Positions 56,597-63,359 of a DNA stretch of 64,000 nt are shown here, in pieces. Position 1 is the first letter of the stretch. Each line of letters starts with the position of its first letter. The notes beneath the pieces were generated by a model. The model was not told the origin of the DNA. It made no database searches and saw only the letters and a program-made list of their open reading frames with translations. The position numbers were made by a program, and so were the translations under genes. The DNA is from Chloroflexota bacterium. GTDB taxonomy: Bacteria > Chloroflexota > Dehalococcoidia > Lucifugimonadales > UBA3495. The DNA is taken from contig VXOH01000131.1 of NCBI GenBank assembly GCA_009840135.1, positions 3,608-67,607 on the forward strand, read 5' to 3'.

Positions 56597-56974
56597 GCCG
56601 GTGTATTGCGCGACCCTCAGAGGCTGGATTTTTGGACTGACCGCTTCCAGAGAGAATGGGGCGGGCGCCGGTGAACGCCTCCTCCCAGGCCTTCCTGGCC
56701 GCCTTCAGGCTGAAGTGCGGTGACGAAGCGGCACGGGCCTGGCTGCGGGAGATGCAGGCCAACAACATATGAGGGCATCCCGATAACTCGATCATCGTAG
56801 CGGCGGCTGCCCGGCGGGAAGTTGACATGGGCTTGGTGACCCGCTCTTAGCTGCAGCCCTTCCTGCAATAAGAAAGCGAGGGGTTCGAAGCCCGCACCCA
56901 CTTCCACAAGGCTGGAAACCCGGGCGCGACGGCGCCGTCTGCCGGGCCGGGTCCATTTCCTAACTTCGGTATGC

Positions 56975-57703
56975 CTACTCCGGTTCTTCCACCGCCGCGG
57001 AGCCAAACCTGGCGATGAAGAGCCGCTCCACCCTTCCGGTAAAGAGCATAAAGCCTATTGCCGCCAGCCACAGGACAAAGGCCACGCCACTGAAGCGATG
57101 CAGATAAGTCAGAGCATCAATCCAAATCAGGAGCATGGCGGCGCCGATGATGACCGACAAGGGCGATATGAACCGCAACGCCCCTCCTGCCATCCACTGG
57201 TACCGGGCGGCCACCAGCAAAGCCAGTCCGGCGGCGGTGAAGCCCAGCTTGCCGGTAAACCAGCGAAGGAAGGCGGTAATCTCCGTGAAGGCTCCGGGAT
57301 CCGCGGAGTTCGTCGCTACCACTGCCAGTACCGCCGCGCCGAGGCCGGACACGGCCGTGAATATGCCTGAGGCCATGAATAGCCACGGGACCATCGGGGT
57401 CGCTCGGCGCTGGCGGATTATCCAGGTCGCCAGCAAGAGCCAGGCGCCCGCAAGCAGCGTCACTCCCGACACCAAGCGGGCAATACCGCTCAGGCCGTAG
57501 GAAATCCGGCTTTCCGCGATGGCCGGCAGGGATTCCACCAGAGTTGGCTGGTCGGCGTCAGCCATAACGCGGGCAGCCACCATGAGCAACGTAACCACCG
57601 CCGTGGCGATCAACAGCAGGCCGGCATAGCGGGCAGCCGAATCGCCCGGCCGTTCCGGAACCGCATTTGAGAAGTTTTGGGGTTCAGGCGCTGATTCCTG
57701 CAT
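56975..57703 (-). CDS. hypothetical multi-pass membrane protein (last gene of the imelysin/HTTM operon)
   Basis: 242 aa, about 6 TM helices. The start lies 7 nt after the HTTM stop. Confidence 0.7.
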   Translation of the reverse strand: MQESAPEPQNFSNAVPERPGDSAARYAGLLLIATAVVTLLMVAARVMADADQPTLVESLPAIAESRISYGLSGIARLVSGVTLLAGAWLLLATWIIRQRRATPMVPWLFMASGIFTAVSGLGAAVLAVVATNSADPGAFTEITAFLRWFTGKLGFTAAGLALLVAARYQWMAGGALRFISPLSVIIGAAMLLIWIDALTYLHRFSGVAFVLWLAAIGFMLFTGRVERLFIARFGSAAVEEPE

Positions 57704-57709
57704 TTAAAG

Positions 57710-59158
57710 TTACCCCCGTTTTTCAGGATAGGGCAATATCCAGGCTCTGGGACCAATACCTGGCTGAACGGTTGCCAGGTCTACAGTCGGGTCAATCAGG
57801 CGAGCCGCAGGTCTGCCGTTGTAGCTGACGTAGGCATCTGCCCGGACCTGCGCTCGCCCATAACCCTGGTTGGCCAAGTCATCCCTTACCAGGTGGGCCG
57901 TGGCCAGTATCAGATCGGGCTGATGGGACATTCGCTCAACCTGCGCCGGTGTCAGGTACTCGTCCGGGTAAACCAGAGTTGCCCTGGCGTCGGGGTCGCT
58001 GCTGACCCGGTAAACCACCTGCCCCGTCTTTTCCGTAAGCATCATTCGCCAGGCGAAAGAGTAGCCTTCCTCGGTCCAGCGCACGTTACCGGGGTAGGCA
58101 TAGTGACGCAGGGGCACAGCCACCTGGATCAGCAGGAATATTGCGGCGGTTGCGATAGCGGCTGTGATCTGCCAGTCCGGGCTTTCGTTTAATGGGGGGC
58201 GACGGCGAAACTCCACAGGAGCTTGCCGCAAGTTCACATGCTGCCGCACCCGCTTTATCAACTTCAGCGGCCAGTCGGGAGCGAAGAAAATCAGCGTAAC
58301 GCCCATCATGATCCAGGGGAACATGCCCAGCGCGGGAAAGAGCAGGGCCGTGGCAAGGTGGAATAACACCAACACCCCATAAGCCCAGGGCCGGGTCCTC
58401 CGCCACAACAGCCAGCTTACTATGGTCAGGTCAAAGACTGCTCCTCCCCAACTCATGGCATAGGCTACCCACTCCTCCCGCAACAGGCCGCCTATCAGGG
58501 GGACGTCGCCGGCGTTGTACAGCCAGATGCGCAGTGGTTGGGCATGGAACAGCCAGTCGGGATTCAGCTTGGCCAGGCCCCCGAACACGTAAACCAGGCC
58601 AACCTGGGCCATCAGCAACCACAGGATGCCCCTGGGTATCACTGGCGAGTCGTGGGCCTTGGGGCTTCCTAGCGCGTCAAGGGAAGCCACCCGGTTCAGG
58701 GGCAGGAAAATCATGATGAAGCTGAGCAGGCTGACCAGGTAGTAGTGGTTGAGGTAGGTAGTCCGGTCAATCAGCTCAACATAGGTGAAAAGGAGAAAGA
58801 AGGCAGTAATGGACAACCGGTAGCGGTATCCCAGCATTACGCCCAGGCAGGCCAGGCCCAACAGCGCAAAGTGCAGGTACATTCCCCAGGCGGGCCAGGC
58901 CTGCACCCAACTGAACCCGTAGTAGCTGAAGTGGTGGACCGGTTCCAGGTAAAGCTGGGAAATCCACCCATTTAAGGCAAAACGGACAACTGCCACCAGC
59001 CCAAGAAGGCCGAAAACGATACGGAATGCAGCCGCCGAATAGGGCGAAACCGGGTGCAGGACGGACCTGATTAGACGACTGGTCAGCCTCTCAAAGCCCC
59101 CGGGGACGCGGCCAAGGGCCAGGGATGCAATGGAAGTGGCTTGGGCAGACAAGGGCAA
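57710..59158 (-). CDS. HTTM domain protein (vitamin K-dependent gamma-carboxylase-like)
   Basis: Reads AAAFRIVFGLLGLVAVVRF...HFSYYGFSW...YVELIDRTTYLNHYYLVSLL. The C-terminal part FAWRMMLTEKTG...YLTPAQVERMSHQPDLIL is like the carboxylase lumenal region. TTG start. Confidence 0.85.
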   Translation of the reverse strand: MPLSAQATSIASLALGRVPGGFERLTSRLIRSVLHPVSPYSAAAFRIVFGLLGLVAVVRFALNGWISQLYLEPVHHFSYYGFSWVQAWPAWGMYLHFALLGLACLGVMLGYRYRLSITAFFLLFTYVELIDRTTYLNHYYLVSLLSFIMIFLPLNRVASLDALGSPKAHDSPVIPRGILWLLMAQVGLVYVFGGLAKLNPDWLFHAQPLRIWLYNAGDVPLIGGLLREEWVAYAMSWGGAVFDLTIVSWLLWRRTRPWAYGVLVLFHLATALLFPALGMFPWIMMGVTLIFFAPDWPLKLIKRVRQHVNLRQAPVEFRRRPPLNESPDWQITAAIATAAIFLLIQVAVPLRHYAYPGNVRWTEEGYSFAWRMMLTEKTGQVVYRVSSDPDARATLVYPDEYLTPAQVERMSHQPDLILATAHLVRDDLANQGYGRAQVRADAYVSYNGRPAARLIDPTVDLATVQPGIGPRAWILPYPEKRG

Positions 59159-59165
59159 CGCCTTT

Positions 59166-60290
59166 TTACCGCAGGGTGTCGCCGTCGGTGTCGGAGAAGC
59201 CTACCGACACTCCCAGCAGGCTGACCACCTCGGTGGCCAGGGTCAACTGTATATCGGCAAGCCGGTCGTAGAGAGCATGTACCTGCTCGGGCCGCTCTTC
59301 AATGGCGACCCTCAGTGGTCCATCCACATCATCAACGGCTTTGATGGCAGCTGCCAGTTGCTCCCTCAGGCGCTGGTCCGTCTCCTCGGACAGGGGCCGG
59401 ACCAAGTCCGAAATGCCGAGGGAATCGGCTCCTGACCCCTCGTAAACCCTCTGCATGCCAATCAGCTCATTTCGCAGGTCGGCCAGGCCATTGTCCGCGG
59501 CATTGCCCGGAATAGCGGTCAAGTCGGTTCCGTCGCCCCGGAGCCCCAGGGCCGTGGCCATGCGCATGTGAACAATGTCCCTGATCAGAAATACCTGGGT
59601 ACGGACCACTTCCTCCACCGCGTCGCCCGAAACAAGGGACAGGCTTGCCCGGTCAGTAAAGTAGTCCCGGTAAGGGGTTCCCAGTTCGCCGCCCTCGGTC
59701 CAGTCAGCGAAGATTGCCTCCGTTTCTTCGCGACCAAGCTGGGTCAAGGCAATAAGATATTGGCAATACCCAAGGGAACCGGAGACCGTCGCCACGGCAT
59801 CATCGCGGAACAAGAGGTGCTCGATGGAGCCGAAACCCCGGCGGCTGGCCGAGTAGGAGTTCCGGACCTGGTCGGCGTCTGTGGAGAAGCCAGTGTCGGC
59901 TACGGACTCGTCAATTGCCGCTGTATCGGTGGGGGACCAGTCCAGCAGGCTTTCGGACCGCCGGTCCATCACCGGCCCGAAGGACATTGCGCTGGTCTGA
60001 AGCCAGGAAGCGCGAGCCGAGCGCCACGCCTGACGCGTGTCCTCCAGCGCCGCTTCCGAGGGAGCACTGCAGAGGGCGGTCGCTTTACTGTCCAGCTCCG
60101 CGGAGTCGCCAGCCAGCTGCCGGTATGCCGGCGCCACCACCTCGTCCGTCAGGTCGATTAAGACTTCCTTGTCGGAAGGTGCGCCGCCCAGGCACGCCGC
60201 GGCGGCCAGCAGCAAGGCCGCCAGGATGGGAGCCAATCTTACCGCAGCATGCAGCAATTTAGAGGGAACCAAGGAATTTAAGAAGAGCAT
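59166..60290 (-). CDS. imelysin-like (peptidase M75 fold) lipoprotein
   Basis: Lipobox LAAAAC; AWRSARASWLQTSAMSFGP, GFGSIEHLLF; C-terminal GFSDTDGD. Confidence 0.7.
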   Translation of the reverse strand: MLFLNSLVPSKLLHAAVRLAPILAALLLAAAACLGGAPSDKEVLIDLTDEVVAPAYRQLAGDSAELDSKATALCSAPSEAALEDTRQAWRSARASWLQTSAMSFGPVMDRRSESLLDWSPTDTAAIDESVADTGFSTDADQVRNSYSASRRGFGSIEHLLFRDDAVATVSGSLGYCQYLIALTQLGREETEAIFADWTEGGELGTPYRDYFTDRASLSLVSGDAVEEVVRTQVFLIRDIVHMRMATALGLRGDGTDLTAIPGNAADNGLADLRNELIGMQRVYEGSGADSLGISDLVRPLSEETDQRLREQLAAAIKAVDDVDGPLRVAIEERPEQVHALYDRLADIQLTLATEVVSLLGVSVGFSDTDGDTLR

Positions 60291-61680
60291 TTCTTTCTTC
60301 GAGAGTTAGGCCCATAAAGTTGTCGCGGGACTCTTTAGCTTCGCCGTCGTGCCAGAGAATAGCTTCTTCCAGGCTGCGGGCCCTGCCGTCGTGCAAGAAG
60401 AAGGTGTGCCCATTTACGACTTCAACCAGTCCAATGCCCCACAGGGGCGGCGTACGCCACTCGGTACCGCTCGCCAACCCGTCAGGCCGGTGGTCGGCCA
60501 GCCCCTCTCCCATGTCGTGCAACAGCAGGTCGGTATAAGGATAGATTACCTGTCCCCGCAGAGGTTCCAAAGGGTGAGTGTTTCCGGTTTCGTGCCTGGG
60601 GGTGTGGCAGGCCGAACACTGGGACTGGACGAACAGCCTCGCCCCCTGTTTGACCTCATCGTCTTCAGTATTCCGCATAGCGGGAACGGCAAGGGTCTGC
60701 GTGTATATAGTCACCTTCTCCAGGCGGGCCTCCGTCAATTCGGGCTCGCCGCCGTTGGGGGCCTGGGCGCAGGCTGATTGGGCTTGGGGACAATTCTGAT
60801 CGGGCAGCAGGCTGGAGGTGATTCCGATGTCTCCCAGGAATGCGCCCGCAGCCTGCTGCTCCACCGTGGGCTGGTTGGCCTTCCAGCCAAAACGCCCGAG
60901 GGACAACTTATCATTGCGGATATCCCAGACATAGTTGGCGCGGCCTGAGATGCCGTCGTTATTGGCGTCATCCGGGTCTGCCAAGGCCAACATATCCTCC
61001 CCGGGTATGGCTTCCAGCAGGCCCATCCCGATGGTGGACGGGGCGATACGGGGCGAAATCATCACCTCCGGGTGGACCAGTCCAAAGGCCGGGTCTTCAA
61101 TGCCGTACGTGGGACGACGCAGACTGTATTCCGTTCCGTCAGGGTAATTGCCGGAGATGTCCGTGTAGATAATCCCTATCCGGCCCTCCGGCGGAACCCC
61201 CAGGATGGAGCGGTCCTGCAACTGGTCGCCGTAAACGGGCTCGGCAACGGGGCCGTCGGGTCCCGGAATGCTCAATCTCAGCAGCAGGCCCCTCACCGGG
61301 TCCTCCGCATTCTCCGGAGGCCGGGCTCGACCATCGTGGCTGTGGCAGGAGGAACAGGACAGGGCGTTCATCGTGGGTCCCAGCCCGTCTCTGGCCTTGG
61401 TGCTGGCCGGGGCAGTGACCCAGTTCTGCTCAAAAAAGCTGTCTCCCACCTCAAAGGCCCGGCGCAACGGCGTGTCCAAATTGCGGGCGGAGAGTTCGAA
61501 GGCGCTCTTGCCATCCGTGAAGGCCGTGGTATCTCCACCCAGGCGCTCGTCATACACTTCCCGCAGGTCAATGCCCCGCTGATAGAATTGGCAACCCATC
61601 ACAAGGATAGTCAAGACCGCCAGCAGCAAGGCTGCCGACGGTCTGGCCAGATGTTTCAGGATCGGGCAGGGACGGGGCAT
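60259..61680 (-). CDS. di-haem oxidoreductase / putative peroxidase (DUF1111 family) lipoprotein
   Basis: Two CxxCH motifs (CSSCHSHDGR, CSACHTP); lipobox LVMGC. Confidence 0.85.
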   Translation of the reverse strand: MPRPCPILKHLARPSAALLLAVLTILVMGCQFYQRGIDLREVYDERLGGDTTAFTDGKSAFELSARNLDTPLRRAFEVGDSFFEQNWVTAPASTKARDGLGPTMNALSCSSCHSHDGRARPPENAEDPVRGLLLRLSIPGPDGPVAEPVYGDQLQDRSILGVPPEGRIGIIYTDISGNYPDGTEYSLRRPTYGIEDPAFGLVHPEVMISPRIAPSTIGMGLLEAIPGEDMLALADPDDANNDGISGRANYVWDIRNDKLSLGRFGWKANQPTVEQQAAGAFLGDIGITSSLLPDQNCPQAQSACAQAPNGGEPELTEARLEKVTIYTQTLAVPAMRNTEDDEVKQGARLFVQSQCSACHTPRHETGNTHPLEPLRGQVIYPYTDLLLHDMGEGLADHRPDGLASGTEWRTPPLWGIGLVEVVNGHTFFLHDGRARSLEEAILWHDGEAKESRDNFMGLTLEERNALLKFLGSL

Positions 61681-61690
61681 AGCGAGGTTT

Positions 61691-62857
61691 CTAGCTGACG
61701 CTTATGGTAATTCCCACTCCCTGGGCCGCGCTGACGATAGTGTCAGTCTGGGCCTCGAGAGCCTCAATAGTCTCCAGGACTGCCCGGCGATTGGGGGCGG
61801 CATCGGATATACCCTCCAGCAACGCGCCGTCGAAGGGGGCAGGAATGGAGCGGGCCAGGTAAACTGAGCGGTTTATCTCAGCCGCAAGCCTATCGGCCAG
61901 CGCCTGGTCCTGCGCCGCTATCAATTCCCTGATACCGGGGCCGGAGACTGAACCATAGTCCCCAAAGTACACCCGCTGGATTCCGGCGGCGTTTGCCACT
62001 ATGTCCGAGATCGTGTTATCCGAGAAGCACGAGTGTTCGTCTTCCTGGGACCGGGCATCGTAGGCCACGGTCATGCGCTCACCGGCAAGTTCGCCACGGC
62101 TCATTTCGCCGATTCCGGTAATGATGTCGGTGATGGCATCATCGGAGTCCTTGGAGACGAACTGAGCCCGGTAGTTGCTCTGACCGGGAGCCCAGGCGTT
62201 CACCATGTCCTGGAGGTGGGACAGAAGCAGGTCGGATGAGACCGCCAGGTAGGTAGCGCGGCGGTCCGCGTTGTCCGCGGTAGTGTAGTCGGAGACGGGG
62301 CGATAGCCGGGGCCGTCCTCATTCAGGTCCTGCCCCCACAGCAGGAACTCGATGGCGTGCCAGCCCGTGGAGATATTCGCCTCGCCGCCCTCTTCGTTGA
62401 GGGATACCAACAGGTCGGCGTCAATAGTCGGATACTCTTCCGGCATATTGATTATGCCGGAGTTCGCGTTGCCTTCCACGTAGTCCACGTAGGACTCGTC
62501 CATGGGCCAGGCATTGATCAACCCTTCGGGGCCATCGGCTTCGTTATCGATGGGACCTTCGTAGAACCGGTAAATCTCGGTCACTCCGTAATCGTCCCGG
62601 GCCAAAAGCCAAGCCCGCTTGGCGGCATCCAGGCGAACCTGAGAAGGCTCCGCCAGGAAGTTATCTATTGCCACATCCATGGCCTGTGCGGAAGCCAGGC
62701 TGCGGGAATAGGACGCATGAGCGCCGGATGCGTAATTCTCGACCACCGAGGTTTTCAGTTCATCGGTGGGTCCCCGGGAAGCGCAGGCGGCCAATGAAGC
62801 CAGCGCCAGCAGGGTTACTGCCAGTGTTATAAGGACCTTTTTTGCCATGACAACCAT
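61691..62857 (-). CDS. imelysin family lipoprotein (iron-regulated protein A-like)
   Basis: Has GWHAIEFLLWGQDLNEDGPGYRP and lipobox LASLAAC. Start taken at MVVMAKK (62855-62857) with AGGAG 6 nt upstream. Confidence 0.8.
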   Translation of the reverse strand: MVVMAKKVLITLAVTLLALASLAACASRGPTDELKTSVVENYASGAHASYSRSLASAQAMDVAIDNFLAEPSQVRLDAAKRAWLLARDDYGVTEIYRFYEGPIDNEADGPEGLINAWPMDESYVDYVEGNANSGIINMPEEYPTIDADLLVSLNEEGGEANISTGWHAIEFLLWGQDLNEDGPGYRPVSDYTTADNADRRATYLAVSSDLLLSHLQDMVNAWAPGQSNYRAQFVSKDSDDAITDIITGIGEMSRGELAGERMTVAYDARSQEDEHSCFSDNTISDIVANAAGIQRVYFGDYGSVSGPGIRELIAAQDQALADRLAAEINRSVYLARSIPAPFDGALLEGISDAAPNRRAVLETIEALEAQTDTIVSAAQGVGITISVS

Positions 62858-63065
62858 GTTCAACTCCTTTACCTCGTTTAACCTGAATCTACATACCCAG
62901 GCACGCAAAACCTGGATTTTCATACACCGCTATAACGATGCCAGTAAATACCATGGCCAGCTCGGATACAGTCCAAAGACCTCTCCGCTTCAAATCCTGG
63001 ACGCATCAATTCGGTTAACATCACATAGCACAGTTGGCATATCAATTTCTATTGTGAATGTAAAA

Positions 63066-63133
63066 ATATATCATTTATCATTAGTGCAAGAATCTTAAAC
63101 AGTATATGCACTATTGTCAATGGCATATTGACA
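63066..63133 (-). promoter_or_regulatory. candidate promoter of the imelysin operon with overlapping palindrome and Fur-like box
   Basis: On the minus strand: TTGACA (63115-63120), 17 nt, TAAGAT (63092-63097). The palindrome TGTCAAT-N5-ATTGACA (63115-63133) overlaps the -35. CTAATGATAAATGATATAT (63084-63066) has TAATGATAA identical to the Fur consensus core. Confidence 0.35.
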
Positions 63134-63359
63134 CATGCTTAATTCAGTGTTTTAACTAACTGTTCTTTGTCGTCTTAACTTTTAGATAGACTAATTGGGC
63201 ATACTCGCTGTTCGGGACATAGGGAAGAAAGGCTCTTGGCCGCCCAGCGTGCAGTAATGGACGAGGCCTGTGGTGGGCCCGGAATTTCGGACCGGTAGCA
63301 AAGTGAGAGTCCCGCTCCTGAACCGAGGGCAGCGTTGCTGTGGGAAGGAGCAGCAAATG

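Follow-up and report, generated by a model that had tools for sequence, protein, structure and literature searches.

The subject of this work is a gene pair, formed by imelB, which encodes an imelysin-like lipoprotein, and its neighbour, which encodes a membrane protein of the HTTM family that, judging from sequence and model comparisons, represents the core of GGCX, the human vitamin K-dependent carboxylase; we consider it very probable that the two are functionally paired. The pair lies in a stretch of 64,000 nucleotides (nt) from a Chloroflexota bacterium (contig VXOH01000131.1, assembly GCA_009840135.1), referred to here as the window, as part of a predicted operon of five minus-strand open reading frames (ORFs) at 56975-62857, with gaps of 10, -32, 7 and 6 nt. 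The other three encode a canonical imelysin (imelA), a di-haem protein (DHOR, DUF1111) and a polytopic membrane protein (TM6), the order being imelA-DHOR-imelB-HTTM-TM6. A previous annotation done from the letters alone (the sequence-only reading) had proposed five packed genes with these gaps; all five ORFs were located where it placed them, and Pfam agreed with its gene identities (PF09375, PF06537, PF09375, and PF05090 plus PF22777 for HTTM). Among bacterial homologues of vitamin K-dependent carboxylases, the only natural target that we found described is the small-molecule intermediate of MloH in malonomycin biosynthesis. Strict pairing across phyla of one lipoprotein family with an apparently intact GGCX catalytic core points to a specific partner, to a candidate site and to organisms that can be cultivated, and makes both the role of such homologues and the mechanism of the widespread imelysin/DUF1111 iron clusters experimentally approachable.

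Conservation of the imelB-HTTM pairing

To define the surroundings of HTTM, one genome per species was scanned, yielding 68 loci with HTTM proteins 33-79% identical, and the six-frame ORFs of these loci were searched with the five proteins of the window. imelB directly adjoins HTTM in around 60 of the 68, and the phyla where this was observed include Chloroflexota, Myxococcota, Deinococcota, Bacteroidota, Verrucomicrobiota, Acidobacteriota and Binatia. The full imelA-DHOR-imelB-HTTM order is present in all of these, although in only some Bacteroidota, and the imelB-HTTM pair persists in cassettes of Bacteroidota and Myxococcota that have neither DHOR nor the first imelysin. An even sample of 151 Chloroflexota genomes contained an intact HTTM with lumenal-type region in four cases, and DHOR was detected in exactly those four, at 2 kb or less from HTTM. 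In a fifth genome, where DHOR is missing, part of a VKGC lumenal domain is interrupted by three stop codons, two TGA and one TAG (G047:C1:2350560-2350817), and seems to be what is left of a cassette that has decayed.

Among 101 Myxococcota genomes there were 38 HTTM places, 15 of them with DHOR within 3 kb. Inspection of 20 further places revealed an imelysin-like gene directly beside HTTM in 16, which makes a total of 31 out of 36 assessable places in this phylum, and 14 of the 18 best DHOR matches adjoin HTTM. The 16 additional pairs are usually accompanied by a TonB-dependent receptor and often by DUF4856, i.e. they correspond to the Bacteroidota-type cassette. Among them is a second imelysin-like/HTTM pair, a paralogue of the first, whose neighbours are a TonB-dependent receptor, in many cases DUF4856 and occasionally TonB (loci L081-L098, genomes G151-G255), where the imelysin-like protein ends in ...GDND, as opposed to ...DNDGD in the other type; several genomes hold both the TonB-receptor and the DHOR type of cassette.

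A tree of 83 HTTM proteins (FastTree) placed all the imelysin-linked copies in one supported clade (96), while three copies without an imelysin neighbour fell outside it, on long branches. The copies from Dehalococcoidia group in a clade of their own (99), with two Myxococcota copies beside it, and two Anaerolineae copies are placed elsewhere; the cassette has thus entered Chloroflexota on more than one occasion. In the Dehalococcoidia clade, the sister group of six co-directional loci, the window included, consists of 15 loci where HTTM keeps its place beside the imelysin genes but runs convergent to them, so that the association does not require co-transcription. In four loci of the convergent subgroup (L013, L015, L017 and L022; approximately 8768-9832 in L013) the gene directly upstream of HTTM, which shares its strand, is a siderophore-interacting one of the ferric-reductase type (PF04954 plus PF08021). 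As for isolated copies, plasmid p1 of Paracoccus albus (L074, 6968-8359) carries an HTTM with lumenal domain, 37% identical to that of the window, which lacks an imelysin neighbour and is divergent to a DUF393/DCC gene; it illustrates a different setting of the family within Pseudomonadota.

The 68-locus, Chloroflexota and Myxococcota censuses rule out that HTTM is a local add-on. The sequence-only reading had presented it as an extension of the operon; it is not a lineage-specific one, the imelB-HTTM pair being the conserved core; the possibility, raised there too, that the adjacency might be lost in related genomes was contradicted by its conservation across at least seven phyla.

The first three genes are in the same order as in PA4370-PA4373 of Pseudomonas aeruginosa and VC1264-VC1266 of Vibrio cholerae (Xu et al., 2011; PMC3143127), and the connection previously drawn with the known iron-associated imelysin/DUF1111/imelysin-like cluster holds. 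Common to the window and the PA4370-PA4373 type are an imelysin with GxHxxE, a DHOR with two CxxCH motifs as well as an imelysin-like protein that has GxxxxE and a DGD tail; they differ in the fourth gene, which in the latter encodes a periplasmic DUF1513 propeller instead of the membrane enzyme HTTM. Regulation by Fur and iron has been published for the imelysin operons of both P. aeruginosa and V. cholerae (PMC3143127). The Riemerella cassette RAYM_09779-09794 (DUF4856-imelysin-like-HTTM-TonB-dependent receptor; PMC5609570) has an HTTM of the same subfamily and an acid-tailed imelysin-like partner. This Bacteroidota type has an outer-membrane receptor and DUF4856 in place of DHOR and the first imelysin, and both types are joined in Chondrinema litorale (imelysin-DHOR-imelysin-HTTM-TonB receptor). 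Iron deprivation and loss of fur each raise the Riemerella genes 2-3-fold (PMC5609570, Table 4), namely those of the TonB receptor, the imelysin and the 'vitamin K-dependent gamma-carboxylase' as well as the gene upstream. In EfeUOB, a ferrous-iron uptake system, an imelysin-like (M75) binding protein is likewise coupled to an enzyme of the haem peroxidase type in extracytoplasmic iron handling; unlike it, the five genes of the window encode no Ftr1-type permease EfeU, DyP-type EfeB or cupredoxin domain according to Pfam.

That the fourth gene is DUF1513 in proteobacteria, as stated in the sequence-only reading, was verified on a Roseivivax plasmid, where imelysin-DHOR-imelysin-DUF1513 follows TonB/ExbBD, and in Sinorhizobium meliloti, where corA is inserted in the same set. 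All 33 plasmid records matched by DUF1513 in tblastn searches belong to Pseudomonadota. Conversely, neither the 68 HTTM loci nor five other HTTM-type whole genomes from five phyla yielded DUF1513, and there was no credible match to it in the genome of the window or in the 151 Chloroflexota genomes. The candidates in this last set were marginal propeller-like matches (E around 1e-4), all but one under the cut-off, and that one passed only with neighbours in frame; they were taken as noise. In two-gene imelysin-DHOR sets that lack imelB (Thermus pTT27, Pseudoalteromonas) neither HTTM nor DUF1513 is adjacent. HTTM and DUF1513 are thus mutually exclusive alternatives beside the same tailed imelB, and their replacement suggests two solutions to one step, possibly dependent on the type of quinone of the organism.

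Our literature search found nothing linking HTTM with imelysin: imelysin combined with carboxylase retrieved the Riemerella table, which lists the genes without comment (PMC5609570), and unrelated papers. New elements here are the tail common to DUF1513 systems, the mutual exclusion of HTTM and DUF1513, the perfect co-occurrence in Chloroflexota and the presence of both cassettes in Myxococcota.

The GGCX core and the imelB tail

HTTM aligns with human GGCX over residues 27-465 (human 49-492) with 26% identity (E 1e-39), and its AlphaFold2 model (55 sequences; pLDDT 91.3, pTM 0.89) retrieved GGCX structures with Foldseek at TM-scores of 0.78-0.82 and matched nothing else. The combination of membrane domain and lumenal-type region predicted earlier is thus borne out by PF05090 and PF22777 and by a GGCX fold (TM-score approximately 0.8). 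Membrane domain, linker and first lumenal subdomain are alike in both proteins. HTTM has 482 residues compared to 758 in GGCX and stops at about human residue 492, the end of the first lumenal subdomain; the second lumenal subdomain and the C-terminal domain are found only in GGCX. From sequence and model we conclude that HTTM is the core of the human enzyme, made up of these conserved parts. No DCC1-like domain, SdpA or DUF5819 partner was identified by the Pfam scan in HTTM or its four neighbours, which sets it apart from the SdpB, DCC-fused and DUF5819-partnered kinds of bacterial HTTM protein.

The catalytic residues of GGCX have been defined in two structural papers (10.1101/2025.02.09.637231; PMC12647623), with K218 as catalytic base, F299 as CO2 trap, F294 as the 'hole-in-the-wall' and Tyr395 forming a hydrogen bond with the substrate carboxylate, and were mapped through the alignment of HTTM with human GGCX. 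The equivalents of the base and its partners are K197 (K218), W202 (W223) and D243 (D263); those of the naphthoquinone and CO2 pocket, F266 (F286), F274 (F294) and F280 (F299); and those of the carboxylate pocket, N137 (N159) and H138 (H160), to which H267 (H287) and W370 (W399) are added. All ten are invariant in 55-64 sequences from at least seven phyla, in a family whose mean identity across them is about 45%. At other positions HTTM departs from the human protein: K217 is replaced by Ala and C99 by Phe.

imelB has a lipobox (AAAC) and the motif GFGSIE, that is, GxxxxE without the His, and its C-terminus reads GFSDTDGDTLR. It matches IPPA of Psychrobacter (PDB 3pf0), including the C-terminal ...TDGD. 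When 48 imelB sequences were aligned (32% mean column identity), D369, G370 and D371 were among the ten invariant or nearly invariant columns, and the only invariant acidic residues were those of the C-terminal tail, which has the form [FY]xDxDGD in about 60 loci. The AlphaFold2 model of imelB has a pLDDT of 93.1 that drops below 50 for residues 368-374, so the tail is predicted to be a disordered linear motif. As to the other two secreted partners, imelA shows the GxHxxE motif (GWHAIE), a lipobox (LAAC) and a partial match, under the family cut-off, to the NCBIfam imelysin LruB (E 1.2e-44), while DHOR has haem motifs at residues 109 (CSSCH) and 355 (CSACH) and an N-terminal hydrophobic signal with Cys30.

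Possible roles of the imelB-HTTM pair

Best supported are a joint action of imelB and HTTM on the outer side of the cytoplasmic membrane and, to judge from the residues of HTTM, its retention of GGCX-type chemistry. That it is a working quinol-dependent enzyme seems to us rather probable. The genome of the host contains a gene of the MqnA/MqnD family, a marker of the futalosine route to menaquinone, and three haem-copper oxidases, so that cofactor and oxygen are available; MenA gave no model match in this genome. The five other HTTM-type genomes all have MqnA/D or MenA, the menaquinone marker being thus present in the six tested. With regard to iron, genes for Fe3+-type binding proteins flank the operon in relatives.

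On this basis we propose, tentatively, that HTTM, with menaquinol and O2, modifies a carboxylate-bearing residue of imelB within an iron-associated envelope module. We infer here a quinol dependence, imelB as target, its tail as site and carboxylation as reaction, as well as an iron regulation of the operon in this lineage. The core of the module would be formed by imelB and the GGCX-type membrane enzyme, its soluble parts being lipoproteins at the outer face of the cytoplasmic membrane. HTTM would bind menaquinol, to be deprotonated by Lys197 (human K218), and the reaction of deprotonated menaquinol with O2 could lead to strong-base and epoxide chemistry as in vitamin K-dependent carboxylases. 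The best candidate for the target would be an Asp of the disordered DxDGD tail, whose carboxylation might create a malonate-like chelator for Fe or Ca, while redox reactions and binding of iron, as known from related operons, would fall to DHOR and imelA. Carboxylation of Asp is favoured among the possible modifications because of the invariant CO2-trap residue and the precedent of MloH, a bacterial GGCX orthologue of malonomycin biosynthesis which carboxylates an aspartyl residue, according to the citing accounts (Law et al., 2018, cited in PMC12647623 and 10.64898/2026.08.19.745780). The substrate of MloH, as those accounts present it, is not a protein but a polyketide-peptide intermediate within a biosynthetic cluster, and in the surroundings of HTTM, surveyed in 88 loci, biosynthetic genes are not a recurring feature. 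Carboxylation of the imelB tail, if it occurs, would provide bacterial vitamin K-dependent carboxylases with their first protein substrate and would suggest metal acquisition as an evolutionary origin of the chemistry of gamma-carboxyglutamate (Gla).

Several facts weigh against this proposal. In the glutamate pocket of GGCX, to which N159 and H160 also belong, the position of Tyr395 is occupied by Tyr in the HTTM of the window and by either Tyr or Phe (34/26) in the family, R436 of GGCX is not conserved, and the presence of Phe instead of C99 means that the C99-C450 disulfide is absent. The second lumenal subdomain, which acts as the propeptide clamp, and the C-terminal domain are both missing. 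The DGD tail is also found at the end of imelB in DUF1513-type operons without adjacent HTTM, namely IPPA (3pf0), Roseivivax and S. meliloti, where it is equally conserved, and its function must therefore be independent of HTTM; it is a trait of the imelysin-like family, not restricted to HTTM-linked members, and cannot serve solely as a substrate of HTTM. The idea that the tail marks HTTM substrates is ruled out, as stated, by the same three cases. Moreover, in Dehalococcoidia three residues follow DGD (TLR in the window), so that the tail is not strictly C-terminal. VKOR (PF07884) was not found in the 93%-complete host genome, and an epoxide would thus be left without a known recycling route; most of the bacterial VKOR homologues assayed lack epoxide reductase activity (PMC4555120). 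A Leptospira orthologue, to our knowledge the one assayed bacterial orthologue, reportedly epoxidised vitamin K without carboxylating, and we know of no report of Gla or carboxy-Asp in any imelysin. Owing to the shared tail, the variable Tyr395, the missing clamp, the absence of VKOR and the Leptospira case, we hold carboxylation of imelB by HTTM, which would be a case of the modification of an acidic partner suggested in the sequence-only reading, to be doubtful. The proposal in its most specific form, i.e. a menaquinone-dependent protein carboxylase acting on the DxDGD tail or another acidic residue of imelB to yield beta-carboxy-aspartate for iron capture, is unlikely.

A quinol-driven role without carboxylation, where HTTM would reduce or release Fe(III) held by the imelB tail, or feed electrons to DHOR, deserves to be considered alongside it, even if we lean against it. 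HTTM would then link the membrane quinone pool to extracytoplasmic iron, and DUF1513 would do the equivalent in ubiquinone-using Pseudomonadota. In general chemotaxonomy the phyla with HTTM loci are listed as menaquinone users, and many Pseudomonadota as users of ubiquinone. Such a role fits the mutual exclusion of HTTM and DUF1513 beside the same tailed imelB, the restriction of the DUF1513 plasmid matches to Pseudomonadota, the menaquinone marker in all six genomes tested, the failure to find VKOR in the host genome and the ferric-reductase-type gene next to HTTM in four loci, and a tail common to both systems could be a shared iron-carrying handle. However, a plain reductase would not need the equivalents of Phe299 and Phe294, which are invariant, no member of the GGCX family is known as an electron donor, and the correlation with quinones is confounded by phylogeny. 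Iron reduction or release driven by quinol is nearly as likely as carboxylation, and explains more naturally the replacement by DUF1513 in Pseudomonadota.

Rather less probable is that HTTM is an epoxidase or strong-base enzyme whose substrate is not a protein but, for instance, a lipid, a small chelator or a molecule derived from quinone, with imelB binding or delivering the molecule or its iron complex. The small-molecule intermediate on which MloH is described to act, the reported epoxidase-only activity in Leptospira and the lack of the clamp for protein substrates could be taken in this sense, as could the TonB-dependent receptors of the second cassette type, which imply an imported ligand. 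The absence of recurring biosynthetic genes in the 88 loci and the invariance of the carboxylate-binding N159 and H160 equivalents do not agree with it, and an action of protein on protein accounts more easily for a strict pairing with one protein family.

We give slightly less credit to HTTM being a non-catalytic receptor, anchor or channel to which imelB would dock by its tail, for example for hand-over of iron to the cytoplasmic membrane. HTTM is the sole widely conserved integral membrane protein of the module, the cluster encodes no permease according to Pfam, and a disordered but conserved tail is typical of docking motifs; yet the invariance of all the catalytic and cofactor-pocket residues tested, in at least seven phyla, points to retained chemistry. 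Finally, an adjacency devoid of functional meaning, with HTTM hitch-hiking beside imelysin genes, is hardly credible, since the convergent orientation in one Dehalococcoidia subgroup and the Paracoccus albus plasmid copy without imelysin neighbour are outweighed by an adjacency that survives inversion, two cassette architectures and transfer between phyla, and by the perfect match of HTTM and DHOR presence in the 151 Chloroflexota genomes.

Operon features and accessory elements

Table 1. Features of the imelysin-HTTM operon in the window.
Feature	Position	Strand	Basis
Candidate operon promoter, TTGACA-17 nt-TAAGAT	63092..63120	-	consensus scan, 10/12 matches
imelA, canonical imelysin lipoprotein	61691..62857	-	PF09375, E 2.9e-70
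DHOR/DUF1111 di-haem protein	60259..61680	-	PF06537, E 2.3e-103
imelB, IPPA-type imelysin-like lipoprotein	59166..60290	-	PF09375, E 8.4e-40
imelB acidic motif D367-T-D-G-D371, followed by TLR	59178..59192	-	48-sequence alignment, tail survey
HTTM, GGCX-core homologue	57710..59158	-	PF05090, E 1.9e-78; PF22777 (VKGC_lumenal_dom), E 4.7e-43
HTTM candidate catalytic Lys197	58568-58570	-	aligned to human K218
TM6, DUF998-like polytopic membrane protein	56975..57703	-	no Pfam match

The genome that contains the window, from a sponge-associated Chloroflexota host, consists of 190 contigs and is 93% complete, and its nearest named relatives are metagenome-assembled genomes (MAGs) of Dehalococcoidia and Chloroflexota. 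Gene callers run on close relatives (78-87% HTTM identity) reproduced the five-gene set and the 32-nt overlap. The -35 and -10 blocks of the candidate promoter align in four relatives within the same identity range (L004 and L077-L079), and between it and imelA there is an AT-rich leader of approximately 230 nt. No terminator-like hairpin was detected in any of the intergenic gaps of the operon, and the number of such hairpins equals that expected from shuffled sequences. The leader region (62858-63200, minus strand) contains short blocks common to the relatives, such as TTCAnnATnGnAnATTG, which may be an operator or leader element.

Scanning with the Escherichia coli consensus revealed no conserved Fur box in the upstream regions of 21 related loci. 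The Fur-like box of the window scores 12/19 with an E. coli-type consensus, which is not above background, given the 316 sites at 13/19 or better in the genome; Fur control is consequently not claimed for this lineage. The genome has five genes of the Fur family.

TM6 had been described as a six-TM protein; it is indeed a membrane protein, with five clear hydrophobic segments in a crude hydropathy scan, so that five or six helices have to be considered. Among its homologues a single one is named, from a Dehalococcoidia MAG, and a few carry PF06197. TM6 adjoins HTTM downstream in L004 and L077-L079 and upstream in L009 and L020, and is absent from the other loci. A core role is ruled out by this confinement to near relatives and two further Dehalococcoidia loci, and TM6 is a lineage-specific accessory.

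With respect to the flanks of the operon, a DDE transposase and a PdxA fragment are located just upstream of it in L078 and L079 (1576-3378), which means that these relatives and the window differ in their upstream flank. On the other side, L077-L079 have an intact gene for an Fe3+-type solute-binding protein (344 aa), convergent to the operon. The window retains an 86-residue remnant of such a protein (56653-56910, plus strand), 63% identical to residues 166-251, which sits between TM6 and a nitroreductase gene.

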